The notes under the pieces were generated by a model. That model was not told where the DNA came from. It saw only the letters and a list, made by a program, of their open reading frames with translations, and made no database searches. The translations under genes were made by a program, and so were the position numbers. Source: an uncultured Gemmatimonadaceae bacterium (GTDB lineage: Bacteria; Gemmatimonadota; Gemmatimonadetes; Gemmatimonadales; Gemmatimonadaceae). From it: a stretch of DNA of 64,000 bases. This document shows, piece by piece, positions 2,927 through 53,819 of the stretch (positions are counted from its first letter, which is position 1; each line of letters begins with the position of its first letter). Location of the stretch: NCBI GenBank assembly GCA_963761305.1, contig CAVXGK010000002.1:32001-96000 (forward strand), written 5' to 3'.

Positions 2927-4056
2927 CCGGTCTGCGGATCGATCGGGAGAGGGTTCGGCTCTACGGAATCGGACTCGCCCTGATCGGTCTCACGCAGATG
3001 CGGTTCGTGGCGAGCGTCGGGCACTACTGGGATTGGGTCGACTTCTACATCGCCGGCGCGATGGCCGGGACGCGCGCGCTGCTCGACCCCGCGGCTCATG
3101 CCGCCTGGGGAGCGGCCCATGGCCTCCCCGTGACATCGTTCGCGTACATGCCGGGCTTTGCCTGGCTCCTCGTGCCGACGTCTCACCTGACGATCGCGTT
3201 GGGTTTTGCGGTCAATGCCGTACTGATGTCGCTCTGCGCGCTTGTCGCGTCGAGGCTTGCGTCGCGCGTCTACGGTCTCGACGCCGGAGACGCGCTCTAC
3301 ATGACCATCGGTTGGGCCCCGGTGACGGCAGCAATCGTGACCGGACAAAACAGCCCTCTTGGTCTACTCCTTTCGCTCGTGGCGATCGACGGCCTGCAGC
3401 GGGGCAGCGCTCTCCGAACGGGCCTGGGTGTTGGGGCGCTGTGCTACAAACCAACATACGCGCTGCCGTTCGCCATTCTGCTTCTCATATATCGAAAGTG
3501 GAAGGCGATCGGGGTCGTGGCGGCGTGCGGCGTGGTATGGTACGTACTCAGCGCGAGCGCGGCAGGCGGGGACTGGCTGTGGCCAAGGCCGTATCTCCAG
3601 TCGCTGGCCGGCTACGTCGGGCCGGATTTCGCCTACAACCGCTTCAAGTCGGTGAGCGTTCCGGGGCTGCTGATGCTGGCCGGCGTCTCAGCCAGCGTGG
3701 CCTTTGGGATCGGGATGGTTGGTCTCGTCTCGGCGCTGGGGTGGCTCAGGGCGCGGAAGGTCGAGCTGCTTTCGGCCGCAAGTCTTGCGGGAGTCATTGG
3801 CGTGGCGACGAGCGGGCACGCGTGGCCGTACGATGCGGCGCTCGCGTTGCCGGCGCTGTGGTGGGTCGCGGCGAAGGTCGACGAGCCGGCGAGGACTCGG
3901 GCGATCGTGGTTGCGTACGTGGTTGCGCCGTTGTGGATGGCGGCGCATACACTCCGATTCGACCCGCTGGCGATTGTCGTTGTTGGAGGGGCGGGGGCGC
4001 TTGTGGTGCGAACGGCGAAACTAACAAAGAGCGAAACAAACAAAGGGCGAAGCTAA
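2923..4056 (+). CDS. Glycosyltransferase family 87 (GT-C) membrane protein
   Basis: Multi-TM protein with DWVDFY, FAYMP, GQNS and KP motifs. ATGA overlap with upstream gene. Stop codon lies inside the 16-mer array. Confidence 0.75.
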   Translation: MTGLRIDRERVRLYGIGLALIGLTQMRFVASVGHYWDWVDFYIAGAMAGTRALLDPAAHAAWGAAHGLPVTSFAYMPGFAWLLVPTSHLTIALGFAVNAVLMSLCALVASRLASRVYGLDAGDALYMTIGWAPVTAAIVTGQNSPLGLLLSLVAIDGLQRGSALRTGLGVGALCYKPTYALPFAILLLIYRKWKAIGVVAACGVVWYVLSASAAGGDWLWPRPYLQSLAGYVGPDFAYNRFKSVSVPGLLMLAGVSASVAFGIGMVGLVSALGWLRARKVELLSAASLAGVIGVATSGHAWPYDAALALPALWWVAAKVDEPARTRAIVVAYVVAPLWMAAHTLRFDPLAIVVVGGAGALVVRTAKLTKSETNKGRS

Positions 4057-4164
4057 CAAAGAGCGAAGCTAACAAAGGGCGAAGCTAACAAAGGGCGAAG
4101 CTAACAAAGGGCGAAGCTAACAAAGGGCGAAGGTGACGAACGGCGAAGGTGACGAACGGCGAAA
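4021..4164 (+). repeat. 16-bp tandem array (CTAACAAAGGGCGAAG)x7 + (GTGACGAACGGCGAAR)x2; solo end
   Basis: Units read directly at 16-nt period with no spacers. Same unit order as 4925-5052. Confidence 0.95.
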
Positions 4165-4297
4165 AAGGCGAGATGACGTGGCCCCCAAGACTGGCCCGGA
4201 AATGATGTCAGTCCAGTGATTGACGCTCGCGCGTTGGCGCAGCGGAAGCTGTCCGATCTCGAGGGGCAGCGGGAGGTGGTGCGACACATCTGTGTCC

Positions 4298-4720
4298 CTA
4301 GGCTGGCACCGGAGTGCCCTTGGCCCACGCCCACGCGGCTATGCGCCAACTGTCTTCATGCTTCCGAAGTGCAAGCGTAAAGGTCGCGTCCGACTGAGTA
4401 ATCTGCTTGCCCAATAGCTTGAACGTCATGCTCGCGGGAACCACCACATACGCACTGTCGCCGGTAACGTTGGCATGCAACGGGGTGCCGATCGTGACCA
4501 AGTAGTCGGTCGCGCCTTCGTGTTCGGCTGCCGCCAATACGTCCCTGTACCAATCCTCACACGCCGTGGGACCGTGCCACACATGTGGCGCCAGACCATC
4601 GAGGATAGATGCGGGAACAGCGAAACACGCCGCCATTGCCCGAGCGTCACCTTTGTTGAACGCGTCGATGTACTGGCGCACTACAGTTACGGGATCGCTT
4701 GTTGGTGCAGCCCGTGCCAT
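4298..4720 (-). CDS. SnoaL/NTF2-like protein
   Basis: VVRQYIDAFNKGDARAMAACF...WRIAAWAW. GGGAGA SD upstream of ATG at 4720. Visibly less GC-rich than its neighbours. Confidence 0.85.
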   Translation of the reverse strand: MARAAPTSDPVTVVRQYIDAFNKGDARAMAACFAVPASILDGLAPHVWHGPTACEDWYRDVLAAAEHEGATDYLVTIGTPLHANVTGDSAYVVVPASMTFKLLGKQITQSDATFTLALRKHEDSWRIAAWAWAKGTPVPA

Positions 4721-4924
4721 GTGAGTTTCTCCCAAGGCTTCGCCAAAGCTCGGTCCATCTCAGGACGCGCATTCAAGTTGTGCGCGTCGCGCGCGCAGAC
4801 ACCGAGACACGGTACGAAGACGACAGTCAGTCGGTGATTAGCGTCGTGAAGGTGCAACGTTGAGGAGTTCTTTGACAAACTCGTCCGGGGTCCGATCGCC
4901 GAGGCCGCTGTTAGCGCGCGACGA

Positions 4925-5052
4925 CTAACAAAGGGCGAAACTAACAAAGGGCGAAACTAACAAAGGGCGAAGCTAACAAAGGGCGAAGCTAACAAAGGGC
5001 GAAGCTAACAAAGGGCGAAGGTGACGAACGGCGAAACGGCGAAAACGGCGAG
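4925..5052 (+). repeat. 16-bp tandem array x6 plus degenerate terminal units; downstream arm of four-helix-bundle element A
   Basis: CTAACAAAGGGCGAAR x6, then GTGACGAACGGCGAAA. Ends 8 nt from the stop of the four-helix-bundle gene. Confidence 0.95.
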
Positions 5053-5060
5053 GGGTTCGA

Positions 5061-5396
5061 CTAGTACTTCAAGCCGTTGATCATCCGAACGATCGTGATG
5101 CCGCGGTTTGAGAGGCGGTGGTAGTCGGCACGGGTAAGTTCGCCCAGACGATACGACTTCCGAATCCATCCGATTGTCTCCTCGCACTCACAGCGGGCGA
5201 TTCGGTAGACGCGCATCCGATCGGCGCCCGGGCCACGGCCGTAGCCCTCGATCAGGTTTGAACTGATCGATCCGGCGGAGCGAATAACTTGCCCTGAATA
5301 CGTCTTTCGGCCGGCGCGCCGACCGAAGCGGCGATTTACGTCCACGGCGTAATCCTCGGCTGCATCGATCACGCGCAGCGTCCGTTTCGGTGGCAT
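5061..5396 (-). CDS. Four helix bundle protein (23S rRNA IVP / Avd-like family)
   Basis: QVIRSAGSISSNLIEGYGR...YRIAR.ECEET..W...LG.L...DY..L matches the family pattern Q.RRAA.SI.SNIAEG.GR. Start placed at MPPKR (111 aa); the ORF is open to 5495. Confidence 0.85.
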   Translation of the reverse strand: MPPKRTLRVIDAAEDYAVDVNRRFGRRAGRKTYSGQVIRSAGSISSNLIEGYGRGPGADRMRVYRIARCECEETIGWIRKSYRLGELTRADYHRLSNRGITIVRMINGLKY

Positions 5397-5543
5397 GGGC
5401 GACACCGTAACGCCGCTCTCGGGGCCAACCACCATCCCGCCGTTGCCGCCGGAACCAATCCGTTGCCGAATTCCTTCTGCCGAAGGAGAGGTCACGGCCG
5501 GGCTGAGAAAGGTCTGAATCGCCCCTCTGGCCGTTCTCGCCCC

Positions 5544-5687
5544 TCTCGAAGTTCGTTACCTTCGCTCTTCGTTAGCCTCGCCGTTTGGCGTCTTCGCCGT
5601 TCGTTCGTTTCGCTCTTCGTTAGCTTCGCCGTTTGGCATCCTCGCCGTTTGGCATCTTCGCCCTTCGTTCCCTTCGCCGTTCGCCTA
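5544..5687 (-). repeat. Inverted, more degenerate 16-bp array (about 9 units, e.g. CTTCGCTCTTCGTTAG); upstream arm of element A
   Basis: Reverse complement of the 16-mer at 16-nt period. Ends 1 nt before the ATG at 5689. Confidence 0.9.
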
Positions 5688-5688
5688 C

Positions 5689-7344
5689 ATGGTCAAGCCG
5701 ATCATTCTCGCCGTCGACGATGATCCCGAAGTGCTGAACGCGGTCGATCGCGATCTTCGCGCGCACTTTCGCGCGGACTATCGGGTCATCAAGGTCGCGT
5801 CCGGCCGCCTGGCGATGGAGACGACGACGCAGCTCAAGCAGCGGGGGTCGCCGATCGCGCTCTTTCTCGTCGACGAGCGCATGCCCGAGATGAGCGGGAC
5901 GCAGTTTCTGGCCGAGGCGATCAAGCTGTATCCGGACGCGCGCAAGGTGTTGCTGACGGCGTACGCCGATACCGAGACGGCGATCCTCGCAATTAATAAG
6001 ATTGGGCTTGATCATTATTTACTGAAACCGTGGGAACCGCCGGCCGAGCGGTTGTATCCGATCCTCGACGACTTGTTGACGGACTGGAAGGCGAGGACGC
6101 GGCCGCTGTTCGACGGGTTGCGCGTCGCCGGCACGGGGCTCTCGCCGTCGAGCTATGCACTCAAGGATTTTCTCGCCGGCAACCAGGTGCCGTACCAGTG
6201 GGTCGACCTCGATGCGGATCCCGCGGCGCGCGCGCTGGTCGAGGCGATGCCGGGCGGATTGAAGCGGCTTCCGGTCGTCTTCTTTCCCGACGGAGCGTCG
6301 ATGGTCCAGCCGACGACGCTCCAGCTGGCCGAGAAGCTCGGCATGCAGACGCACGCGAAGTCGAAGCAGTACGACCTCGTCGTCGTCGGCGGCGGGCCGG
6401 CGGGATTGGCCGCGGCCGTGTACGGCGCGTCGGAGGGGCTGCGCACGATTCTGGTCGAGCGCTATGCGACCGGCGGACAGGCGGGCACCAGCTCGCAGAT
6501 CGAGAACTACCTCGGGTTCCCGAGCGGCGTGAGCGGCGCGGATCTCGCGCGCCGAGCCACGACACAGGCGAAGCGATTCGGGGCCGAGGTGCTCACGGCG
6601 CAGGACGTCGGGTCGATCGAGCGGAACGATCCGTATCGCGTGGTGAAGCTGTCCGACGGTTCTGTGTTGCAGAGCAAGACGGTTGTCATCGCGTCGGGGA
6701 TGGAAGTGCGGCGGCTCGACGTGCCGGGGATCGAGGCGCTCGTCGGCTGCGGCGTTTTCTACGGCGCCGCGCTCACCGAAGCGGCGACGTACCGCGACCG
6801 CGACGTGTTCGTCATCGGCGGCGCGAACTCGGCGGGGCAGGGCGCGATGTTTTTCTCGCGCTACGCGCGGCGCGTGACGATGCTCGTGCGCGGCGAATCG
6901 CTGACCGCCAGCATGTCGCAGTATCTCATCGACCGCATCGCGGACACCAAGAACGTCGAAGTGCTAACGCGAGCAGCGGTGTGCGGGGTGCGGGGAACTG
7001 AGAGGCTCGAGGCGATCACGATCTCCGATCTCAAGACCGGTGCGACGCGCGAGATGCCGGCCGACGCGCTGTTCATCTTCATCGGCACGTCGCCGCGCAC
7101 CGAGGTGGTCGCGGGACTGGTGCAGCGCGACGCGCAGGGATTCATCCTCACGGGACGCGACCTGATGGTCGACGGCCAGCGTCCGCCGGGGTGGACGCGC
7201 GACCCGTATCTCTTCGAGACGAGCGTGCCGGGCATCTTCGCCGCCGGCGACGCGCGGCGCGGCTCGGGAAAACGCGTCGCCGCGGCCGTGGGCGAGGGAT
7301 CGGCGACGGTGAGCATGGTCCACGAATACCTGGAGACTGTGTGA
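5689..7344 (+). CDS. Receiver domain fused to thioredoxin-reductase-like FAD/NAD(P) oxidoreductase
   Basis: N-terminal ILAVDDD...LVDERMP...KPW; GGGPAG, GGANSAG and GIFAAGD motifs. No CxxC (YGAALTEA). Confidence 0.9.
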   Translation: MVKPIILAVDDDPEVLNAVDRDLRAHFRADYRVIKVASGRLAMETTTQLKQRGSPIALFLVDERMPEMSGTQFLAEAIKLYPDARKVLLTAYADTETAILAINKIGLDHYLLKPWEPPAERLYPILDDLLTDWKARTRPLFDGLRVAGTGLSPSSYALKDFLAGNQVPYQWVDLDADPAARALVEAMPGGLKRLPVVFFPDGASMVQPTTLQLAEKLGMQTHAKSKQYDLVVVGGGPAGLAAAVYGASEGLRTILVERYATGGQAGTSSQIENYLGFPSGVSGADLARRATTQAKRFGAEVLTAQDVGSIERNDPYRVVKLSDGSVLQSKTVVIASGMEVRRLDVPGIEALVGCGVFYGAALTEAATYRDRDVFVIGGANSAGQGAMFFSRYARRVTMLVRGESLTASMSQYLIDRIADTKNVEVLTRAAVCGVRGTERLEAITISDLKTGATREMPADALFIFIGTSPRTEVVAGLVQRDAQGFILTGRDLMVDGQRPPGWTRDPYLFETSVPGIFAAGDARRGSGKRVAAAVGEGSATVSMVHEYLETV

Positions 7345-8774
7345 TGGGCGACACGCCTGCGGAAATCGTCGAGCGGCTCGTCGCGCACCGCACACTGGGG
7401 GGCGCGCCGCGCGCGGAGCTCGAGTGGCTGGCCACGCACGGCACCATGCGGCGCTACGGAACGGGGGACATCCTCGTCCCGCCCGGTGCGACGTCCACCG
7501 AGATGGTGATCATCTTCGTGGGCGACGGGTCGATCAGCGTCGAACGAGCGGGGGAAAAAAAGAAGTTCCTCGAGTGGCACGCCGGCGACGTCACCGGCCT
7601 GCTTCCATATTCTCGAATGAAGCGGCCGCCGGGGCTGACGACGACGGAGTCGTCAATCGAGGGGCTCGTCATTCACCGGGATCTGTTCCCCGAGCTGACG
7701 CGCGAATGTCCGTGGGTCACGGAGACGCTCGTGCACATCATGCTCGATCGCGCGCGGCAGTTTTCGGCCAACGACTGGCAGATCGACAAGCTCGCGTCGC
7801 TGGGACGCCTCTCGGCGGGACTGGCGCACGAGCTCAACAACCCGGCGTCGGCGATCGCGCGCAGCGCGCGAACGCTGGTCGAGAACCTGGCGCAGTCGCA
7901 AGCGGCGGCGCGAGAACTGGGGGCGGCCAACCTCCGCGATCGCGACATCGCGCTGATCGACGCCATGCGCGACGGCCAGGCGTTTCCGCGAGCGACCGGC
8001 ATCTTCTCGGCGATCGAGCGCGCCGATCACGAAGAGGAAGTGGTCGAATGGCTCGAAGCCAAGGGCGCCGATCCGGCGACGGCGCAGAGCCTGAGCGAGA
8101 ATGGCGTTCCCGTGGCGGCGCTCGACGATCTGGCGAGCGCGATCCCGGAAGAGTCGCTGGATGCCGCGCTCCGGTCGGTGGCGTCGGGCATCACGACGCG
8201 CTTGCTCGCCGAGGACATCGAGCGCGCCGCGACGCGGATTCACGAGCTGGTCGGCGCGATCAAGCGCTTCACCTACATGGATCGCGCGACGGTGCGAGAA
8301 CCGGCCAACATCGCGCAGGGGATCTCGGACACGATCGCCGTGCTGGCGTCGAAGGCGAAGTCAAAATCGGCCTCGATCAAGCTCGACATCCCCGCCGATC
8401 TGCCGAAGGTCGGCGCGTACGGAGGCGAGTTGAATCAGGTATGGTCGAACCTGATCGAGAACGCGCTCGATGCGCTGGGGCAGGGCGGCGAGGTGTCGGT
8501 CACGGCGCGGGCGGAGGGGGACACGGTCATGGTGCGGATCGTCGACAATGGGTCGGGGATTCCGGCGGATGTCCTGCCTAGCATCTTCGATCCGTTCTTT
8601 ACTACGAAGCCGATGGGGCAGGGGACGGGGCTGGGGCTGGACATCAGTCGGCGGATCGTGTTATCGCATGAAGGGACGATTGAGGTCGAGTCTAAGGCGG
8701 GGAGGACGGAGTTTAGGATTTCATTACCAACGGCGAAGATAACAAAGGGCGAAGATGACAAAGGGCGAGGATAA
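7344..8774 (+). CDS. Sensor histidine kinase with N-terminal cNMP-binding-like domain
   Basis: LAHELNNP H-box, NLIENALDA, DNGSGI, FFTTK, GTGLGL. ATG overlaps the upstream TGA. Stop lies in the repeat array. Confidence 0.9.
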   Translation: MGDTPAEIVERLVAHRTLGGAPRAELEWLATHGTMRRYGTGDILVPPGATSTEMVIIFVGDGSISVERAGEKKKFLEWHAGDVTGLLPYSRMKRPPGLTTTESSIEGLVIHRDLFPELTRECPWVTETLVHIMLDRARQFSANDWQIDKLASLGRLSAGLAHELNNPASAIARSARTLVENLAQSQAAARELGAANLRDRDIALIDAMRDGQAFPRATGIFSAIERADHEEEVVEWLEAKGADPATAQSLSENGVPVAALDDLASAIPEESLDAALRSVASGITTRLLAEDIERAATRIHELVGAIKRFTYMDRATVREPANIAQGISDTIAVLASKAKSKSASIKLDIPADLPKVGAYGGELNQVWSNLIENALDALGQGGEVSVTARAEGDTVMVRIVDNGSGIPADVLPSIFDPFFTTKPMGQGTGLGLDISRRIVLSHEGTIEVESKAGRTEFRISLPTAKITKGEDDKGRG

Positions 8775-9083
8775 CAAAGGGCGAAGATAACAAAGGGCGA
8801 AGATAACAAAGAGCGAGGATAACAAAGGGCGAAGATAACAAAGGGCGAGGATAACAAAGAGCGAGGATAACAGAGGGCGAAACTGCCAAAGGGCGAAGCT
8901 AACAAAGAGCGAAGGTGACGAACGGCGAGAACGGCGTAAGGCGCCCCGTCGCCTCTGGATTCGCAGTCCTCGCAGTCCTCGCAGTCCTCGCAGTCTTGGC
9001 TGTTCTCGGAGTTTGTCACCTTCGCTGTTCGTTAGTTTCGGAGTTTGTCACTTTCGGGGTTTGTTACCTTCGCTTTTAGTCAG
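8739..9083. mobile_element. Gene-less fold-back copy of the 16-mer element: forward array x12, (TCGCAGTCC)x4 core, inverted array x5
   Basis: Forward units 8739-8930, 9-mers 8961-8996, inverted units 9004-9083. Inner junctions resemble those of element A. The repeats are certain; mobility is inferred. Confidence 0.7.
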
Positions 9084-9087
9084 GGCT

Positions 9088-15788: not shown

Positions 15789-18700
15789 ATGAATTTCACG
15801 ACGTTGTTCATTAAACGGCCGGTAATGACCACGCTGGTCATGGTCGGCATTCTCGTCTTCGGCATCGTCGCGTACCGGCAGTTGGCGGTGAGCGATCTGC
15901 CGAACGTCGACTTTCCGACGATCACGGTCAGCGCCTCGTTGCCGGGCACCAGCCCGCAGACGATGGCTGCGACGGTGGCGACGCCGCTCGAGAAGCAGTT
16001 CTCGACGATCGCCGGCATCGACAACATGACGTCGACGTCGAGCCTCGGGACGACGCAGATCGTCATCCAGTTCGCGCTCGACCGGAACATCGACGCGGCC
16101 GCGCAGGACGTGAACGCGGCGATCGCGCAGACGAGTCGCCAACTGCCGCAGGGCATCATCCCGCCGTCGTACCAGAAGACGAACCCGGCGGACGCGCCAA
16201 TTTTGACATTGGCGCTCACATCGAACGAAGTCCCGCTCTCGACGCTCGACGAATACGGCGAGACGACGCTGGCGCAGCGGCTCTCTATGGTTGGAGGGGT
16301 CGCGCAAGTTCTGGTGTACGGCACGCAGAAGTACGCCGTCCGCATCCAGCTCGACCCGGGGCAGCTCGCCTCGCGCAGCATCGCGCTCGAGGACATCGCG
16401 ACGGCGATCACGAGTCAGAACGTCAATCTGCCGACCGGCGTGCTCTGGGGCCCGCGCACGGCGCTCACGGTACAGGCGACGGGCCAGCTCGACAACGCGA
16501 GCGAATTCTCCGACATGATCGTCGCCTATCGGAACGGTGCGCCGGTGCACCTCAACGAGATCGGCAAGATCACCGACGACGTTCAGAACAACAAAACCGC
16601 CAGCTGGTACAACGGCGAGCGGTCGATCGTGCTGGCCATTCAGCGCCAACCGGGCACGAACACGGTAGACGTCGCGAACAAGGTGAAAACGGCGCTCGGC
16701 AAACTTTCAGCGGAGATTCCGCCGGCCGTCCACGTCGACACGCTCTACGACCGCTCGGCCACGATCAAGGCGTCGGTCGACGACGTGACGTTCACGCTCG
16801 AGCTGACGCTCGGCCTCGTCGTGCTGGTGATCTTCCTGTTCCTGCGGAACTGGTCGGCGACGATCATCCCGAGCCTCGCGCTGCCGATGTCGATCATCGG
16901 CACGTTCTCGGTGATGTACCTGTTGCACTACAGTCTCGACAACCTGTCGCTCATGGCGCTCACGCTCGCCGTGGGCTTCGTGGTCGACGACGCGATCGTG
17001 ATGCTCGAGAACATCGTCCGCCATCTCGAGATGGGAAAAGATCGGATGACGGCGGCGATCGAGGGGGCGGCGGAAGTCGGCTTCACGATCCTCTCGATGA
17101 CGTTCTCGCTGGCCGCGGTCTTCATCCCCTTCCTGTTCATGGGGGGGATCATCGGCAAGCTGTTCCACGAGTTCGCGGTCACGATCGGCGTGGCGATCCT
17201 TGTGTCGGGCTTCGTGTCGCTGACGCTCACGCCGATGTTGTCGAGCCGATTCCTCAAGTCGGATCACGGCAAGGAACACGGCGCGCTCTACAAGATGAGC
17301 GAGCGCTTCTTCGACGCGTGGCTCGGACTCTACGAGCGCACGCTCGCCTGGGTCATGGAACGGCGGCCGCTCACGTTGGCGTTTTCGTTCGTCATTCTCG
17401 TGGCGACGGCGTACCTCTTCTGGTCGACGCCCAAGGGACTGTTCCCGACGGACGACACCGGACAGCTGCTCGCGACGACCGAAGCTTCCGAGGGCGTGTC
17501 GTACGACGCGCTGGTGCAGCACCAGCAGGAAGTCGCGGCGGCGGTGACGAAGGATCCCGACGTGCTGTCGGTGACGTCGTCGGTCGGCACGACGGCGGCG
17601 GCGAACCAGGGGCAGCTCACGATCGACCTCAAGCCGATCGACCAGCGCAAACGCAGCGCCGACCAGATCGCGCGCGACCTCACGAAGTCGGTGGCGAGCG
17701 TCCCTGACATCAACACGTTCATCCAGAATCCGCCGGCGATCTCGATCGGCGGTCTGGCGTCGAAGAGCTTGTACCAGTACACGCTCCAGAGCGGCGACAT
17801 GAACGCGCTCAACACGTCGGCGCGCCAGATGGAAACGCGCATGCGGAGTCTGCCCGGGCTCATCGACGTGACGAGCGACCTGCTGATCGAGAATCCGCAG
17901 GTCACGGTCGACATCAACCGCGAGGCCGCCGGGGAGCTCGGCGTGTCGGCGAGTGAGATCGAGAACACGCTCTACGACGCGTTCGGCCAGCGCCAGGTGT
18001 CCACGATCTATACGTCGACGAACGAGTATTGGGTGGTGATGGAGCTGTTGCCCGAGTACCAGCAGGACGCCGACGCGCTGGGAAAGCTGTGGGTTCGCTC
18101 GACGCGCGGGCCGCTCGTTCCGCTCAGCACCGTGGCGGCGTTCCGCTATTCGGTGGGTCCGGTCACCGTGAACCACTCGGGACAGCTGCCGTCGGTAACG
18201 GTCTCGTTCAACCTCGCGCCGGGCACGTCACTCGGCACGGCGCTCAAGGAAATCCAGCAGACCGCGGCCGACGTGCTGCCCAACACGGTGGCGGCGAGCT
18301 TCTCGGGGATCGCCGAAGCGTTCGTGACGACGCAGCAGGGCCTCGTGATGCTGATGCTGCTGGCGATTTTCGTCATCTACGTGATTCTGGGCGTGCTCTA
18401 CGAGAGCTTCATCCATCCGATCACGATTCTCACCGGCCTGCCGTTCGCCGCGTTCGGCGCGCTGGTGACGCTGATTCTCGTCGGGCTCGATCTCGACATC
18501 TATGGATTCGTCGGGATCATCATGCTCATCGGTATCGTCGAGAAGAACGCGATCATGATGATCGACTTCGCGATCGAGGCGCAGCGCGAGAAGAAGCGCA
18601 CGCCGGCCGAGGCGATTCTCGAGGCGGCGAGCGTACGGTTCCGGCCGATCATGATGACGACGATGGCGGCGCTCATGGGCGCCGTACCGATCGCGGTCGG

Positions 18701-18902
18701 GTGGGGCGCGGGTGCGTCGACGCGGCGGCCGCTCGGCGTCGCGGTGGTTGGTGGACTGGCGTTCTCGCAGCTCGTGACGTTGTACGTCACGCCCGTGTTC
18801 TATACGTACCTCGACGAGTGGCAACAGTGGTTCTCGCGGAAGAAGGCGAAGAGCGAGGCGGGGCAGATCGTGGGGGCGCCGGAGCCGGCTACGGGCGACT
18901 GA
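15789..18902 (+). CDS. RND efflux permease (MdtB/MdtC-like), paralog of the upstream gene
   Basis: Same motifs, colinear with 12391-15504. Confidence 0.92.
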   Translation: MNFTTLFIKRPVMTTLVMVGILVFGIVAYRQLAVSDLPNVDFPTITVSASLPGTSPQTMAATVATPLEKQFSTIAGIDNMTSTSSLGTTQIVIQFALDRNIDAAAQDVNAAIAQTSRQLPQGIIPPSYQKTNPADAPILTLALTSNEVPLSTLDEYGETTLAQRLSMVGGVAQVLVYGTQKYAVRIQLDPGQLASRSIALEDIATAITSQNVNLPTGVLWGPRTALTVQATGQLDNASEFSDMIVAYRNGAPVHLNEIGKITDDVQNNKTASWYNGERSIVLAIQRQPGTNTVDVANKVKTALGKLSAEIPPAVHVDTLYDRSATIKASVDDVTFTLELTLGLVVLVIFLFLRNWSATIIPSLALPMSIIGTFSVMYLLHYSLDNLSLMALTLAVGFVVDDAIVMLENIVRHLEMGKDRMTAAIEGAAEVGFTILSMTFSLAAVFIPFLFMGGIIGKLFHEFAVTIGVAILVSGFVSLTLTPMLSSRFLKSDHGKEHGALYKMSERFFDAWLGLYERTLAWVMERRPLTLAFSFVILVATAYLFWSTPKGLFPTDDTGQLLATTEASEGVSYDALVQHQQEVAAAVTKDPDVLSVTSSVGTTAAANQGQLTIDLKPIDQRKRSADQIARDLTKSVASVPDINTFIQNPPAISIGGLASKSLYQYTLQSGDMNALNTSARQMETRMRSLPGLIDVTSDLLIENPQVTVDINREAAGELGVSASEIENTLYDAFGQRQVSTIYTSTNEYWVVMELLPEYQQDADALGKLWVRSTRGPLVPLSTVAAFRYSVGPVTVNHSGQLPSVTVSFNLAPGTSLGTALKEIQQTAADVLPNTVAASFSGIAEAFVTTQQGLVMLMLLAIFVIYVILGVLYESFIHPITILTGLPFAAFGALVTLILVGLDLDIYGFVGIIMLIGIVEKNAIMMIDFAIEAQREKKRTPAEAILEAASVRFRPIMMTTMAALMGAVPIAVGWGAGASTRRPLGVAVVGGLAFSQLVTLYVTPVFYTYLDEWQQWFSRKKAKSEAGQIVGAPEPATGD

Positions 18903-18913
18903 GACTTACAAAA

Positions 18914-19173
18914 ACGGCGATTGGGTCGCGGCCACTCTGAGGTTTGTCTCGCCGGTTCGACGTCGCGGTGCGCGCTCGACGTCTGACGTCAGATTTCAGA
19001 CGTCAGACGTCAGACCCTGCGGTTGGCCGGTGAGTCTTCGCGTCAGGGCGGAATCGGACCGCGTCGCGCCGGGTCTGACGTCTGATATCAGACCTCTGAC
19101 GTCCGACTTCGAGCCTGCAGCCGTACCATCCACTCCAAGACAGACCTCAGAGTGGCCGCGATCCGACCGTCGT
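18914..19173. mobile_element. Gene-less fold-back copy of the 7-mer element with 36-bp terminal inverted repeats and inner (GTCAGAC)n arrays
   Basis: 18914-18949 is inverted to 19138-19173 (5 mismatches) and 18974-19016 is inverted to 19072-19114. Both arms match the flanks of the 46.5-kb four-helix-bundle gene. Mobility is inferred. Confidence 0.75.
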
Positions 19174-44359: not shown

Positions 44360-46279
44360 TCATCGCGGACCCGACACGACCGGCAGCTCGACGAAGCTTA
44401 CGTGTCCCGGCTCGTGGAAGATTCGGTGCTCGGCCGATTTATAGTCGCTCGCCTTGGCCCAGAAAATGTTCGGCACGAAGGTCTGCGGGTTGCGGTCGTA
44501 GAGCGGAAACCAGCTCGACTGAATCTGCACCATGATCCGGTGCCCCGGCAGAAACACATGATTGGCCGTGGGCAGCGCGAACGTGTAGGCGAGCGGCGTG
44601 TTCGACGCGATCGGTTTGGGATTGTCGAAGCCCTCGCGATACCGTCCACGGAGGATGTCCATCGCCACCGCGAGCTGATAGCCGCCCATCTTCGCGTCGC
44701 CGCCGACTTCGTCGGGGTAGACGTCGATGAGCTTGACGACCCAATCGGCGTCGCTGCCGGTGGTCGAGGCGACGAGATGCGCCACGGCCTGCCCGCTGAT
44801 CTTCATCGGTTCGGTGAGGACGGGCGTCTCGTACGAAAGGACATCGGTGCGCCCCGAGAACTCGCGTTGGTCGTCGACCAGCCAGCACGGCCAGGTCGCG
44901 CACGTGTCGTAGCCGGTCGGCTTGATCGGCCGCGCGCGGAAGGGAACCGGTTTGGCCGGATCAGAGATGTATGAATCGTGGCCGGCGGCGGCGGGCGGAG
45001 AAAAGCCAGCCACGAAATCCGGGCCGAGATAGAGCGGCGTCAGCTTGATCGTGCAGCCGCTGGCGCAGCCGCTGGGCCACGCGCTCAGTCGCTCCCAGTG
45101 ATTGGTGCCCGTCTCGTACGCGTTGACCGGCGCCACGTCCATCGGCGGGTGTTCGTCCTTGAGGTAGTGCGCGAGAAACGGCGCCAGGATGTTCTTCTGA
45201 AACTCCTTCGACGTGTTGGCATCGAAGTCGAGCGCGCCGAGGCTGCTGCCGTTCTCGATCTCCTGGCCGTGGTGCCACGGGCCCATGGTGATGTACACCA
45301 TGTTGTTGTTCACGTCCTTGGGTTTGATCGCCTTGTAGACGGCGATCGCGCCGTAGATGTCTTCCTGGTCCCAGAGGCTGTGCACGAGCATCGTCGGGAC
45401 CTTGATCGGTTGCGCGGCGAGGATCTTGTCCATCGCCTGCAACTGCCACCACGAATCGTAGCTCGGGTGCTGGAGGATCTTGTTCCAGAATCCGACCTGC
45501 TCGAGGCCGTGCTGCTTTCCGAGCTCGCCGGCCGAGACCGACTTGATGTAGAGGTCGTAGTCGTCGTAGTGGTCCGTCCACCACTTCGCCGAATTGTCGC
45601 GCGTCGCTTCCTGCTCGAGGACGTACGGCATGTTCTGCTCGCGGAACGCGCCGTTGTGGAACCAGTCGTCGCCCATCCAGCCGTCGACCATCGGGTTCAT
45701 CGGCACCGAGACCTTGAGCGCCGGATGCGGATTGACGAGTCCCATGAGCGGCTCGAATCCGTCGTACGAAATGCCGAGTTCCCCGACGTTGCCGTTGGTC
45801 TCGGGCACGTTCTTCACGAGCCAGTCGATCGTGTCGTACGTATCGGTGGACTCGTCGACCTTCGTGGAATTGAGCGGGCCGACGAGCGGGCGATTCATCA
45901 CGTAGTCGCCCTCGGATCCGTACTTGCCGCGAATGTCCTGCACGACGCGGATGTACCCGCCGGGGATGATGACGTCGAGCGCGTTGTCGTAGCCGTTCAG
46001 CTCAGGCGCGAGATGCGCGCTCTGGGCGTACGACGTCGTGGCGGTGGCGTCGTAGGGCGTCCGCGTGAAGAGGATCGGCGCGCGGCGGGCGTTTTTCGGG
46101 ACGAGGATGACTGTGTGGAGTTTGACGCCGTCGCGCATGGGGATCATGACGTCGCGGCGTTGATAGTCGAAGGTCGAGGTGCTGGGAGTGAACTTCGATG
46201 GGGTTTCGGTAGGGAGCTGGGCGCCGAGAGAAGCGGCGGCGAGAAGCGTGAGACCGGCGAGGACGCGAGCGAGGTACAC
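44360..46279 (-). CDS. CocE/NonD family hydrolase (alpha-amino acid ester hydrolase-like)
   Basis: IPMRDGVKL, RTPY, QDIRGKYGSEG, GISYDG, GPWHHG and WFPLYDRNPQ. Confidence 0.92.
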   Translation of the reverse strand: MYLARVLAGLTLLAAASLGAQLPTETPSKFTPSTSTFDYQRRDVMIPMRDGVKLHTVILVPKNARRAPILFTRTPYDATATTSYAQSAHLAPELNGYDNALDVIIPGGYIRVVQDIRGKYGSEGDYVMNRPLVGPLNSTKVDESTDTYDTIDWLVKNVPETNGNVGELGISYDGFEPLMGLVNPHPALKVSVPMNPMVDGWMGDDWFHNGAFREQNMPYVLEQEATRDNSAKWWTDHYDDYDLYIKSVSAGELGKQHGLEQVGFWNKILQHPSYDSWWQLQAMDKILAAQPIKVPTMLVHSLWDQEDIYGAIAVYKAIKPKDVNNNMVYITMGPWHHGQEIENGSSLGALDFDANTSKEFQKNILAPFLAHYLKDEHPPMDVAPVNAYETGTNHWERLSAWPSGCASGCTIKLTPLYLGPDFVAGFSPPAAAGHDSYISDPAKPVPFRARPIKPTGYDTCATWPCWLVDDQREFSGRTDVLSYETPVLTEPMKISGQAVAHLVASTTGSDADWVVKLIDVYPDEVGGDAKMGGYQLAVAMDILRGRYREGFDNPKPIASNTPLAYTFALPTANHVFLPGHRIMVQIQSSWFPLYDRNPQTFVPNIFWAKASDYKSAEHRIFHEPGHVSFVELPVVSGPR

Positions 46280-46335
46280 GGGGGGCTCGAGGTTTTGGCT
46301 TCCGGTAAGGTCGCGCCGGAAGCGGCGAGTCGAAA

Positions 46336-46996
46336 GGCGTTGGGTGGCCCGGCCATTCTGGGCACTGGCGCCGGGTTAGGTACGACTTTGGGCTCGAAGT
46401 CGGACGTCAGATGTCGGACGTCAGATGTCAGACAATGCGTACCCCGGAAACAGAATCGTGATGGAGCCCCGCCGCCGATGCATATCGTCGCCCCCTAACC
46501 GGAGGACAGGTGGGGAACTTCAGGCGACTCGTGGCATGCAGAAGGCGAACGCGTATTCGTTGGCAGTCCACGCGGCGTTTCGAACCATGAGGGCACAGGT
46601 CTCGCCGGGGTTCCCCGCCCAAGTCCTTCGTGCAGTCAGCTCCATTCCCGACAACCTTGCCGAAGGCTGCGCCAAGCGCTCTAGGCGCGAACTCGCGCGC
46701 TACGCCGACACGGCCTATTCGTCCTCGAAGGAAGTCGAGAATCAACTCATTCGGGCACGAGCGCTCGGACTGCTGAGTCGCCAGATGTTCGAGGACCTGA
46801 TGCGCCAGGGAGACGAGGTCTCGCGGCTGTGCTACGCCCTCGCGCTCGGCTGACCCGCCTGCGGCGACTCCTGCCGGGGCGAGCAGGAGGTCTGACGTCT
46901 GACATCTGACATCTGACATCTGACGTCAGACGTCGAGCGAACCACGTGGCTCGCCGGCCAATCGAACTCAGAGTGGCCGACCGCCCCTCCAACGCC
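46336..46996 (+). mobile_element. Four-helix-bundle element B: terminal IRs plus inverted 7-mer arrays around the gene
   Basis: (GTCRGAY)x5 at 46399-46433 and (RTCTGAC)x5 at 46890-46924. Outer IR GGCGTTGG..CGGCCATTCTG pairs with CAGAGTGGCCG..CCAACGCC. Mobility is inferred. Confidence 0.7.
46510..46853 (+). pseudogene. Four helix bundle protein (23S rRNA IVP / Avd-like), 1-nt frameshift near 46538
   Basis: GGAGG SD plus GTG gives MGNFRRLVA, then TG CAG AAG GCG (expected W-Q-K-A). The other frame carries QVLRAVSSIPDNLAEGCAKRS...EVENQLIRARALG. Confidence 0.8.
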
Positions 46997-47011: not shown

Positions 47012-47764
47012 TTAGGGCTGCGGTCTTCCGATATCTCTCAACCGCCCTTTCGCTTCATTGTTCGTCGAATCCCGCCGAATCGCCTCTCGGTACGCCGTCT
47101 CCGCCCCCGCCGTATCCGCCTTCATGAGCAGCACATTCCCCCGAAACACGTACATCCCCGATGAGTTCGGGTAGAACTCTTCGTTCAACCGAAGCATCGC
47201 GAGCGCCTCGTCGAACTTGCTCGCTCGTCCGAGCCGGAACGCCGCGGTGTTCAGTTGGCCTTCGCCAAAATCGTAGGCGCCGCTGCCGTAGTACCGCTGC
47301 CGCAGCGCGCGGTACGCTTTCACACCCGAGTCCGCGCCGCCGGCCGTCGCCGCGGCGATGATCACGGCGGAGAGGGGCATCGGTTTGCTCACTCCGCGGT
47401 GACACGTCGCGCAGGTGACCTGCGGGTCGTCGGGCTGGTGGCCAGGCAATGTGTCGAGCCGGCGATTCGCCTCTTGCACCAGCAGCATCATCTGTCGCGC
47501 GACGAGCTTCGTCCGCTTGTCGTCGCTCACGAAGTTGAACTGCGTGAGCGGCTGGCCTTCCTCGCCGACGTGACAAAACTGGCACCGCACGCCCAGGTCC
47601 GACGTGAAGTTGCGCATCGTGCCGATGACCTGCAGCACGGGCGTCGACTTCGGGATGACCTTGGTGTTGACCAGCGAATCCGGCGGAAACTTCGCCGGTG
47701 CCTGGGCAAGCAGCTGCGAGGCCGCCAGCGTGATCACCGGAATCGTCAACATCGAGACGCGCAT
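47012..47764 (-). CDS. Di-heme c-type cytochrome (reaction-centre cytochrome c-like domain) with C-terminal TPR
   Basis: Signal peptide, LGVRCQFCH, VTCATCHRG and TPR-like helices. ORF open to 47800. Confidence 0.85.
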   Translation of the reverse strand: MRVSMLTIPVITLAASQLLAQAPAKFPPDSLVNTKVIPKSTPVLQVIGTMRNFTSDLGVRCQFCHVGEEGQPLTQFNFVSDDKRTKLVARQMMLLVQEANRRLDTLPGHQPDDPQVTCATCHRGVSKPMPLSAVIIAAATAGGADSGVKAYRALRQRYYGSGAYDFGEGQLNTAAFRLGRASKFDEALAMLRLNEEFYPNSSGMYVFRGNVLLMKADTAGAETAYREAIRRDSTNNEAKGRLRDIGRPQP

Positions 47765-52862: not shown

Positions 52863-52937
52863 GGTGACTGTAGCTCAATCGGTTAGAGCACCGGACTGTG
52901 GCTCCGGGGGTTGCGGGTTCAATTCCCGTCAGTCACC
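52863..52937 (+). tRNA. tRNA-His(GTG) with encoded G-1
   Basis: Acceptor GTGACTG/CAGTCAC; anticodon arm CCGGA-CTGTGGC-TCCGG; GGTTCAATTCC. Confidence 0.97.
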
Positions 52938-52979
52938 CTGCGGCGGTCGCCGAGGCGAGGCGGCGCGGGAATTGGAGTT

Positions 52980-53052
52980 AGGTCGGTAGCTCAACTGGTA
53001 GAGCACTGGTCTCCAAAACCAGCGGTTGGGGGTTCAAGTCCCTCCCGGCCTG
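52980..53052 (+). tRNA. tRNA-Trp(CCA)
   Basis: AGGTCGG/CCGGCCT; CTGGT-CTCCAAA-ACCAG. Confidence 0.97.
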
Positions 53053-53169
53053 TGAGAGCAAAAGGGCACGTGGACGAGTTAGGGGAAGTGTGCGGGCGGA
53101 CACTGTAGGCGTCAGCGACGGGCGGCAGCATCAGTGGGAAGGCGGCAACGAGCGAGAAGCAAGTCCTAG

Positions 53170-53242
53170 GGCGGTATCGTCTAGGGGACTAGGACGGGGC
53201 CCTCTCAAGGCCCAAACACGGGTTCGAATCCCGTTACCGCTA
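53170..53242 (+). tRNA. tRNA-Glu(CTC)
   Basis: GGCGGTA/TACCGCT; GGGCC-CTCTCAA-GGCCC. Confidence 0.96.
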
Positions 53243-53291
53243 TTGGAAGTTGTGGTATGAGATGGTTGGAACAGGTGGTTCGCGTCGACCT

Positions 53292-53363
53292 GGCCCGTTC
53301 GTCTATCGGTTAGGACGGCACCCTTTCACGGTGCAGAGAGGGGTTCGATTCCCCTACGGGCTA
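53292..53363 (+). tRNA. tRNA-Glu(TTC)
   Basis: GGCCCGT/ACGGGCT; GCACC-CTTTCAC-GGTGC. Confidence 0.97.
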
Positions 53364-53370
53364 TCGAACG

Positions 53371-53467
53371 CAGGTGGGCAGGCGGACAGCAGGCGATGAA
53401 AGGGATTGGAGAGTTGGCGCGAGGCGCGGGTGTAGGTCCACCCGTCACCCCGTCCACCTGTCCACCC
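53371..53467. repeat. Inverted 8-mer arrays (GGTGGAC / GTCCACC family) between tRNA-Glu and tRNA-Asp
   Basis: caggtgggcaggcggacag ... gtccacccgtcaccccgtccacctgtccaccc. Confidence 0.65.
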
Positions 53468-53475
53468 GAAGTTCA

Positions 53476-53550
53476 GGGGGCGTAGCTCAGTTTGGTTAGA
53501 GCACTCGACTGTCACTCGAGAGGTCGCGGGTTCGAGCCCCGTCGCTCCCG
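53476..53550 (+). tRNA. tRNA-Asp(GTC)
   Basis: GGGGGCG/CGCTCCC; CTCGA-CTGTCAC-TCGAG. Confidence 0.97.
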
Positions 53551-53633
53551 TGTTGGACAGCTAAGGCGAAAGTTGGAATTCGAAATTCCGATTCTCTGAT
53601 AGCTGAAATGTGGTTGATGGTCGCACGTGGAAT

Positions 53634-53715
53634 GCCCTGGTGGTGAAATTGGTAGACACGCCATCTTGAGGGGGTGGTGCCGCAAGGCGTCACGGTTCGA
53701 GTCCGTGCCAGGGCA
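53634..53715 (+). tRNA. tRNA-Leu(GAG)
   Basis: GCCCTGG/CCAGGGC; CCATC-TTGAGGG-GGTGG; long variable arm. Confidence 0.97.
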
Positions 53716-53747
53716 TGCAGCACAGTCGTCCTAGAGTCGAGAACGTC

Positions 53748-53819
53748 GCCAGCGTAGCTCAGTGGTAGAGCACTCGATTCGTAATCGAGCGGTCGTCGGT
53801 TCAATCCCGACCGCTGGCT
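53748..53819 (+). tRNA. tRNA-Thr(CGT)
   Basis: GCCAGCG/CGCTGGC; CTCGA-TTCGTAA-TCGAG. Confidence 0.97.

Follow-up and report, generated by a model that had tools for sequence, protein, structure and literature searches.

Strand-polarised C deficit at silent sites of genes next to inverted tandem-repeat elements in a Gemmatimonadaceae genome

Several protein genes in a 64,000-nucleotide stretch of an uncultured Gemmatimonadaceae genome change their synonymous codon usage where they approach repeat elements. The locus raises the question of whether this change belongs to the elements, which strand it follows and what causes it. The stretch (hereafter the window) is C2:32001-96000 of the source genome (G000; 5.2 Mb, 66% GC). 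The strand running 5'-3' into an element is referred to as the inward strand, the 3' end of a gene as its tail and the 5' end as its head. The initial annotation held that the inward strand is C-poor whatever the gene direction, and proposed localized strand-specific mutagenesis centred on the elements.

There are three elements of interest in the window, A (4014-5683), K (8732-9072) and B (46333-46994), each with tandem-repeat arms in inverted orientation (Table 1). A and B contain a four-helix-bundle gene as cargo and K is empty. Elements of this kind sit between protein genes, are often empty and have arms that are approximately 75% complementary tandem arrays. Folding of single-stranded DNA predicts arm-to-arm pairing in K (long fold, z -3.9) and B (z -5.5). 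The source genome contains 289 intergenic arrays, and the purine-richer arm is the left one, with the purine-rich arm inward, in 45 of the 49 loci with at least two arrays. The only Rfam matches in the window are seven tRNAs, which places A, K and B outside rRNA; a seven-tRNA cluster follows efp (52864-53819).

Table 1. Features of the window (window coordinates)
Feature	Position	Strand	Remarks
Element A	4014..5683		16-mer arms 4014-4163, 4924-5037, inverted 5519-5683; SnoaL-like and four-helix-bundle genes inside
Four-helix-bundle gene of element A	5061..5405	-	PF05635 / TIGR02436
C-poor tail, GT87 glycosyltransferase	3850..4020	+	Best zone extends back to ~3705; within-gene 2LLR 10.5
Histidine kinase gene (HATPase_c)	7344..8774	+	Last ~12 codons read from repeat arm of K
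C-depleted 3' zone, kinase into element K	8549..8738	+	9 C at 51 C-capable silent sites vs 27.9 expected; 2LLR 25.1
Element K left arm	8732..8914	+	11.4 copies of purine-rich 16-mer
Element K right arm	8961..9072	+	9-mer run and inverted pyrimidine-rich 16-mer copies; without cargo gene
Second RND tail	18614..18899	+	Mild, non-significant C deficit, 14 vs 19.2 (z -1.9; 2LLR 4.7); adjoins inverted-repeat element ~18928-19165
G-depleted 5' zone, CocE/NonD hydrolase	46082..46279	-	Plus strand, running into element B, is C-poor; 2LLR 31.1
Element B	46333..46994		Fold-back unit: heptamer arms 46399-46433, 46890-46934 and terminal stems
Four-helix-bundle gene of element B	46494..46853	+	TIGR02436; PDB relative 2gsc, E 2e-7
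C-depleted 3' zone, c-type cytochrome into element B	47012..47147	-	5 C vs 19.0 expected; 2LLR 17.6

A second copy of element B, 96% identical, is present at C1:30864-31522. B was copied or moved as a 655-nt unit (C2:78333-78987 in the window copy), and the four-helix ORF of the C1 copy is split by indels. A non-coding element of ~240 nt (window 18928-19165) has near-perfect terminal inverted repeats of ~27 nt and heptamer arms of the element B family. It is MITE-like, with relatives in the source genome at C2:1527878, 2815183, 1678013 and 1295810, and a transposase for it was not found. In element A, a SnoaL-like gene of atypical composition (4298-4735, minus strand) forms extra cargo between two same-direction arms, which suggests that arms capture genes. 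The C-termini of the kinase and the GT87 glycosyltransferase are lengthened in the source genome by reading into an arm.

Codon usage at gene ends in the window

Genes were called with a self-trained dicodon model, so gene starts are approximate. Expected third-position counts were taken from genome-wide synonymous usage, and a second, change-point test (2LLR) compared each gene-end zone with the interior of the same gene. In the kinase tail (8580-8738), there are 8 third-position C where 22.2 are expected (z -5.2), with 30 G (21.5 expected) and 9 T (3.7 expected). The cytochrome tail contains 7 C vs 21.7 expected (z -5.1). In the CocE head, which reads away from element B, it is third-position G that is lost (7 vs 26.6 expected, z -6.0), and C is in excess (43 vs 29). 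All three changes had been described from the sequence alone and were borne out. The GT87 tail, described in the same way, is C-poor (9 vs 22.8, z -4.3), but its within-gene contrast is weak because the interior is also C-poor (116 vs 146). A milder loss proposed for RND tails did not hold. The first RND tail has no deficit (18 vs 19.6), and that of the second is not significant. The heads facing A and K show little or nothing (TrxB-like gene, 18 vs 17.9; PLP decarboxylase, 17 vs 20.9). The rule that the inward strand is C-poor whatever the gene direction is borne out only in part.

Such values are rare at control ends. Scores of z<-4 are reached by 0.5% of 2185 array-free tails and 0.3% of 2308 array-free heads. 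A 2LLR of 25 is reached in 4 of 653 control tails and 3 of 692 control heads, and a 2LLR of 15 in 16 and 17 of these, respectively. Two backgrounds run in the same sense. Ordinary gene ends show a weak drift of this sort: C3 is 0.90 over the final 15 codons of tails and G3 is 0.83 over the opening 15 of heads. This drift is real and much smaller (+0.01 to +0.10 in tails; +0.05 to +0.16 in the first 50 nt of heads), and it confounds heads. The plus strand of the window region also has more G than C at silent sites, by ~0.1-0.2. This regional skew is controlled by the interiors of the same genes and by the cytochrome tail, which is depleted despite opposing it. A sequencing or assembly artefact was rejected, as the changes are silent, lie in conserved codons and recur in separately assembled genomes. 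Strain-level comparison was based on assembled contigs of related strains, one of which covers 8451-8725 with 22 differences. Overall, the original observation is partly confirmed.

Arrays in the source genome, its relatives and other phyla

Third-position skew was computed as a function of distance from the arrays, as the initial annotation had proposed, and the deficit extends over ~100-200 nt. In the 21 tails at 16-mer arrays, the inward G-minus-C residual is +0.30, +0.29, +0.24 and +0.15 in successive 50-nt bins and then near background. The seven heptamer-type tails give +0.46, +0.43, +0.18 and +0.15. At short 8-mer arrays, the effect is limited to the first 50 nt. An equal skew at element-free ends would have spoken against a link to the elements; control tails in the same binning are much weaker (+0.01 to +0.10). 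Convergent and tandem tails are both affected. Raw skew is highest on the arms themselves (+0.36, -0.35) and flat inside the four-helix cargo ORF.

Strong outliers (z<-3.5) make up 13 of 261 array-adjacent tails, with 0 in the opposite direction. Among the 2387 element-free tails there are 22, and 17 deviate the other way (p 0.0014). Heads near arrays are not enriched in outliers genome-wide (3/160 and 0/110 vs 27/2556, p 0.76). Cryptic elements were considered as the source of the array-free outliers and rejected: none of the 178 tails beside non-tandem dispersed repeats is a strong outlier, and the 22 outliers have no visible element. A scan of the whole genome for outliers returned 130 windows, mostly far from arrays. 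The effect is real, but it is strong at a minority of elements only.

The four-helix family is widespread, with PF05635 present in 58 of the 61 genomes searched. Of 30 loci taken for this family, 26 were complete, and the comparison covers four-helix-bundle elements of 26 other Gemmatimonadales genomes. When only conserved codons are counted (residue identical to the homolog in the source genome; 44 of 52 ends), the residual in the nearest 100 nt is +0.50 and +0.46 for tails, and heads start at +0.54 and drop to +0.12; controls give +0.04 and +0.07. Per distinct host gene, the skew near the element exceeds that farther away in 19 of 20 tails and 7 of 10 heads. In other phyla, 61 of 79 loci were analysed and 18 shorter than 8 kb were left out. 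Over the final 50 nt of tails, inward C reaches 0.45-0.69 of its expected level (0.96 in one group of three ends), vs 0.87-0.90 in controls. Beyond 50 nt these 61 loci are normal, and all six 150-nt tests are non-significant. Generality across phyla was rejected, since the deficit is confined to these final 50 nt, a stretch into which the arms may encroach. The deep form is shown here only for the Gemmatimonadales because encroachment may explain the short effect elsewhere.

Orthologous junctions differ in element content. Between the kinase and the decarboxylase, 9 of 10 relatives have a usable tail, as judged by eye. G015, G005 and G019 have arrays of differing units, G017, G022 and G024 keep a short remnant only, and G011 and G001 are element-free with a normal, C-rich tail. 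The kinase of G003 (60% identity, a different setting downstream) comes with an array of its own and a four-helix-like ORF, and its tail is C-poor, again by eye. The repeat unit at this junction (window 8732-9085; L002-L006, L009 and L011) varies by species with arm polarity kept, and the remnants are ~15 nt long. For the CocE head, 23 loci were compared, with element presence judged from upstream sequence. Depletion is present at five of the eight element-bearing loci (z -3.2 to -4.0), which belong to one related clade, and the other three give weak values (-1.6, -1.2, +0.3). Fourteen of the 15 element-free loci lie within +/-1.2 and one is at -3.3. The flanks of the C1 copy of element B are unskewed (-0.04 and -0.08, vs +0.37 and -0.26 at the window copy), which is consistent with slow build-up after arrival.

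These comparisons bear on whether the order of events might be reversed, with already skewed gene ends attracting or nucleating arrays. Ends that lack an array but whose orthologs have one are somewhat skewed (four-fold C 0.33-0.38 vs 0.42), and the skew is largely ancestral in the clade, as such an order would predict. Three of the array-less ends, however, keep a short arm remnant by eye, which points to loss. Distant element-free orthologs are normal, the young B copy landed in unskewed DNA and recent C loss is still raised (see below). Reverse causation is accordingly very improbable.

Substitutions, replication direction and candidate causes

In 59 element tails, the C frequency at four-fold sites falls from 0.367 to 0.227 and G rises from 0.486 to 0.633, with T and A unchanged. 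In the same tails, two-fold T rises from 0.217 to 0.337 and AGG/(AGG+CGG) from 0.14 to 0.28. The 34 element heads lose coding G (0.426 to 0.273) and show no rise in two-fold A; the close-relative set does show one (0.364 vs 0.289). In 52 tails, the odds of C are 0.32-0.55 in all eight 5' and 3' neighbour contexts, with no preference. Plain C-to-T deamination or a motif-specific deaminase is insufficient because C goes to G, T and A in every context, and deamination alone does not fit four-fold sites, where C is traded for G without a rise in T. A C-to-T-only model with control rates was rejected, as it needs four-fold T of ~0.2-0.3 vs the 0.07 seen; the model is crude and does not exactly reproduce the control equilibrium.

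Substitutions were polarised with orthologs, a check also proposed at the outset, by assigning recent changes to terminal branches by parsimony in five close relatives (four-fold identity 0.77-0.84). The set comprises 113 tail ends (57 genes) and 64 head ends (33 genes) and spans ~0.5 Mb in three close relatives with smaller pieces of three more, so counts are small. Within 45 codons of the elements, inward C>any is observed 136 times vs 95.1 expected (1.43x), G>any 161 vs 137.7 (1.17x) and any>C 78 vs 79.8 (0.98x). C>any and any>C differ (p 0.007), and the asymmetry between C and G loss reaches only p 0.087. G>A and C>T show similar increases (1.30 and 1.48), and A>G is 17 vs 17.9. Further into the genes, substitution rates are about normal, and amino-acid change is not raised. 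Within 150 nt of large arrays, tail C>T is 36 vs 14.6 and C>G only 7 vs 7.8. Head coding-strand C>T is 15 vs 7.5 there, which argues against a pure mirror. Recent substitutions favour mutation over selection, although not decisively. In syntenic blocks of G005, G017 and G024, C-to-G and G-to-C are the commonest four-fold substitutions, at ~2x C>T.

Replichores were assigned from dnaA and a polar octamer that is taken here to be KOPS-like. This places the origin at ~C2:3.16 Mb and the terminus at ~0.79 Mb, which makes the plus strand of the window leading. The canonical dnaA is at C2:3173776; a separate open frame of ~650 aa at C2:1255249-1256820 contains two tandem Bac_DnaA-type domains. The hairpin geometry predicts that the inward strand suffers when it is the lagging-strand template (leading-like). 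In the source genome, heads in this orientation have a median of -0.32 vs -0.08 in controls (p 2e-4, n=29), and heads in the other orientation -0.09 vs -0.08 (p 0.72, n=28). The direct comparison gives p 0.019, the replichore split being one of several tests run. The heads of relatives show the same trend (p 0.052 vs 0.72) at sites partly shared with the source genome. Tails are hit on both replichores (p 8e-6 and 0.009; pooled C 0.84 vs 0.85, direct p 0.30), and control ends have no replichore effect. In the window, the kinase tail, the GT87 tail and the CocE head are on the predicted side; the exception is the cytochrome tail, which is lagging-like yet strong. In relatives, the leading-like side has no excess of recent C loss (1.41x vs 1.64x), and its any>C is 0.81 (0.55-1.14). 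Selection would also give such a value. Global silent-site GC skew is nearly absent from the source genome, compared with the local +0.3 to +0.5 at elements. The polar octamer gives clear replichores, yet there are 20-100 kb domains of alternating silent-site skew (for example, C2 8-100 kb, +0.1 to +0.2; C2 2120-2160 kb, +0.17; C1 320-340 kb, -0.15).

The tentatively preferred explanation, which falls somewhat short of an even chance, is that the inward C deficit of ~100-200 nt is a mutational scar of repeated single-strand exposure 5' of the element. The arms are predicted by folding to pair into a long hairpin in single-stranded DNA. With the element on the lagging-strand template, the polymerase would stall at the hairpin, leaving the template 5' of it uncopied. 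Such a stall would account for tails and heads whose inward strand is the lagging template. Because tails lose C on either replichore, and the cytochrome tail does so strongly although lagging-like, a second exposure route was added: RNA polymerase entering the purine-rich arm may expose the same, non-template strand in the remaining tails. Exposed C would deaminate, and uracil would be excised without an intact partner strand. Translesion synthesis, with a DnaE2-like polymerase as a candidate, could then fix G, T or A, and purifying selection would leave mainly silent changes. The four-helix-bundle protein would not be required in cis. The source genome encodes two UDG-family genes, MutS and a DnaE2-like gene (937-938 bits vs a cut-off of 939) behind a weak Y-family-like ORF in a cassette at C1:1205575-1210553. 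No C5 DNA methylase was found in it.

Several results count against the stall model. An Okazaki gap of 1-2 kb is expected, and the depleted zone is shorter. Three element-bearing CocE orthologs show little or no effect, one element-free CocE ortholog is depleted and other phyla show nothing beyond 50 nt. Of the mutagenesis first proposed, the local, element-linked and polarised character survives, with C loss raised 1.43x, and plain deamination does not suffice.

The same standing pattern could in principle arise by selection on RNA. Silent sites would be kept C-poor before a G/A-rich arm and G-poor after a C/U-rich arm, either so that the transcript neither mispairs with the arm nor loads Rho, or so that start regions stay open. 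The composition as it stands can be described by an approximately uniform ~2x penalty against inward C, the lack of context preference and the excess of tails over heads agree with it, and flank C tracks arm C weakly (rho 0.21). Substitutions into C, however, are not reduced (0.98 vs ~0.7 expected by our own estimate) and others rise. The cargo ORF beside the same arms is unskewed, and the head effect depends on the replichore. Arm-specific anti-pairing gave no signal: flanks pair with their own arm no worse (-28.3 kcal/mol) than with other arms (-28.2) or with shuffles (-28.6). RNA-level selection, whether against mispairing and Rho loading or for open start regions, is unlikely on this evidence.

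Strand-biased heteroduplex correction at a recombination hotspot, with mismatches resolved against C on the invading strand as in polar biased gene conversion, would also give a uniform C penalty without T build-up and with a short decay. C-G exchanges are the commonest four-fold substitution in the genus, and MutS is present. This process predicts fewer any>C fixations, which are not seen, and leaves the replichore dependence unexplained. It is regarded as improbable.

A break at the element followed by resection is a further candidate, judged rather unlikely. The element would be cut, by a hairpin nuclease or through gain, loss or exchange of arms, and 5'-3' resection would bare the inward 3' strands on both sides, with damage fixed in recombinational repair. 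The polarity, with C lost from the top strand on the left and G on the right, equals that of bidirectional resection in yeast in the available part of that account (PMC6786661). Both flanks of element B are affected, and one site shows turnover of its arms from species to species. Copying from an intact donor would also leave the cargo without skew, in agreement with the unskewed cargo ORF. Against this, most loci are one-sided and lagging-like heads are unaffected. The SbcD match is below its cut-off (66.4 vs 77.65 bits), and a Y1/RAYT transposase was not found in the genome, which is 93% complete. Bacterial resection is usually longer than 100-200 nt, which also counts against a break.

Replacement from cDNA, a route named in the initial annotation alongside Avd homology, is extremely unlikely. 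The four-helix protein belongs to the S23/IVP family (TIGR02436 at 70.4 and 60.1 bits vs a cut-off of 24), whose fold resembles that of Avd. In a structure-database search with this protein, no Avd chain matched at E<=0.1. The single RVT_1 match in the 93% complete genome is a group II intron RT/maturase (TIGR04416, 410.9 bits vs a cut-off of 300). This RT (C1:818500-825500) lies between pieces of an IS-like transposase frame, with a pentamer array and another IS-like ORF next to it. A search for a second copy of the flanks that could serve as a template repeat was negative: for the four zones, BLASTN gives only paralogous gene motifs of 51-78 nt at 76-83%, or nothing. One RNA template cannot yield the mirror pattern, and diversity-generating retroelements (DGRs) mutate adenines, according to the part of the source available (PMC3240598), whereas C is lost here. 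A role for the Avd-like protein in cis is not supported either: the strongest tail is at K, which lacks a four-helix gene, and no skew is seen within the four-helix ORF.

A stronger form of the mutational explanation is that the elements are built-in, site-specific mutators, in which strand exposure and an error-prone polymerase rewrite 100-200 nt of host genes, with the four-helix protein, bound to the arms, possibly recruiting or aiding the polymerase in trans. This is doubtful. If true, mobile repeats would be driving an RT-free, kataegis-like process in bacteria, which could also account for the G-rich-inward arm polarity across phyla.

Implications and comparison with known systems

The feature is real, element-linked and lineage-wide, and narrower than first claimed; a mutational cause is probable. 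If the cause is mutational, a non-autonomous repeat element locally reshapes the mutation spectrum of neighbouring bacterial genes, reducing silent C to half or less. As the scar persists after the element is gone, it could serve to date occupancy and to reveal lost elements. The uncharacterised four-helix-bundle/repeat elements would gain a measurable phenotype. If the cause is selective, silent sites 100-200 nt into genes are under unusually strong constraint. Either way, analyses of codon bias and GC skew near such elements are confounded. In the literature searched, which included few subscription journals, no description of flank C loss at such elements was found.

Five known systems share parts of the pattern. 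REP/REPIN-RAYT systems were also considered, and PF01797 (Y1 transposase) has 0 matches in the source genome (93% complete). The S23p-encoding intervening sequences of 23S rRNA likewise contain a four-helix-bundle ORF between complementary arms (PMC4990558, in the portion available), and that portion makes no mention of flank mutation. Unlike those sequences, the elements described here occur between protein genes, their arms are tandem repeats and many contain no cargo. DGRs, which consist of Avd, an RT and template and variable repeats (TR/VR), share a related small helical protein family and a change concentrated at the gene 3' end. Here there is no DGR RT and no TR, the change is at C rather than A and it is silent rather than diversifying.

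Interrupted palindromes on the lagging-strand template of Escherichia coli are, in the accessible sections of that study (PMC4245961), likewise long interrupted inverted repeats with a predicted fold-back and the same geometry. Breaks are reported there, with no flanking compositional scar in those sections; the arms of the present elements are only ~75% complementary and SbcD is matched only below its cut-off. The GC skew that replication and transcription produce by deamination of single-stranded C also leaves the exposed strand C-poor, and heads here follow the replichore. As described in the available text (PMC10030826), that skew is mild and chromosome- or gene-wide, whereas the skew here is local and four-fold T is flat.

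The polarity is also that of the single-switch, strand-coordinated mutation clusters found in yeast where breaks are bidirectionally resected. In the part of the report consulted (PMC6786661), C is likewise lost on the strand running 5'-3' toward a point, with the mirror image beyond it. Mirror strand coordination is seen here at element B and in pooled relatives, and heads are unaffected on one replichore. The yeast clusters, in the same part of the report, are one-off, kilobase-scale products of APOBEC with a tCw motif. The bacterial case is a standing silent bias over 100-200 nt with no motif, and it is pinned to a repeat element and often one-sided.
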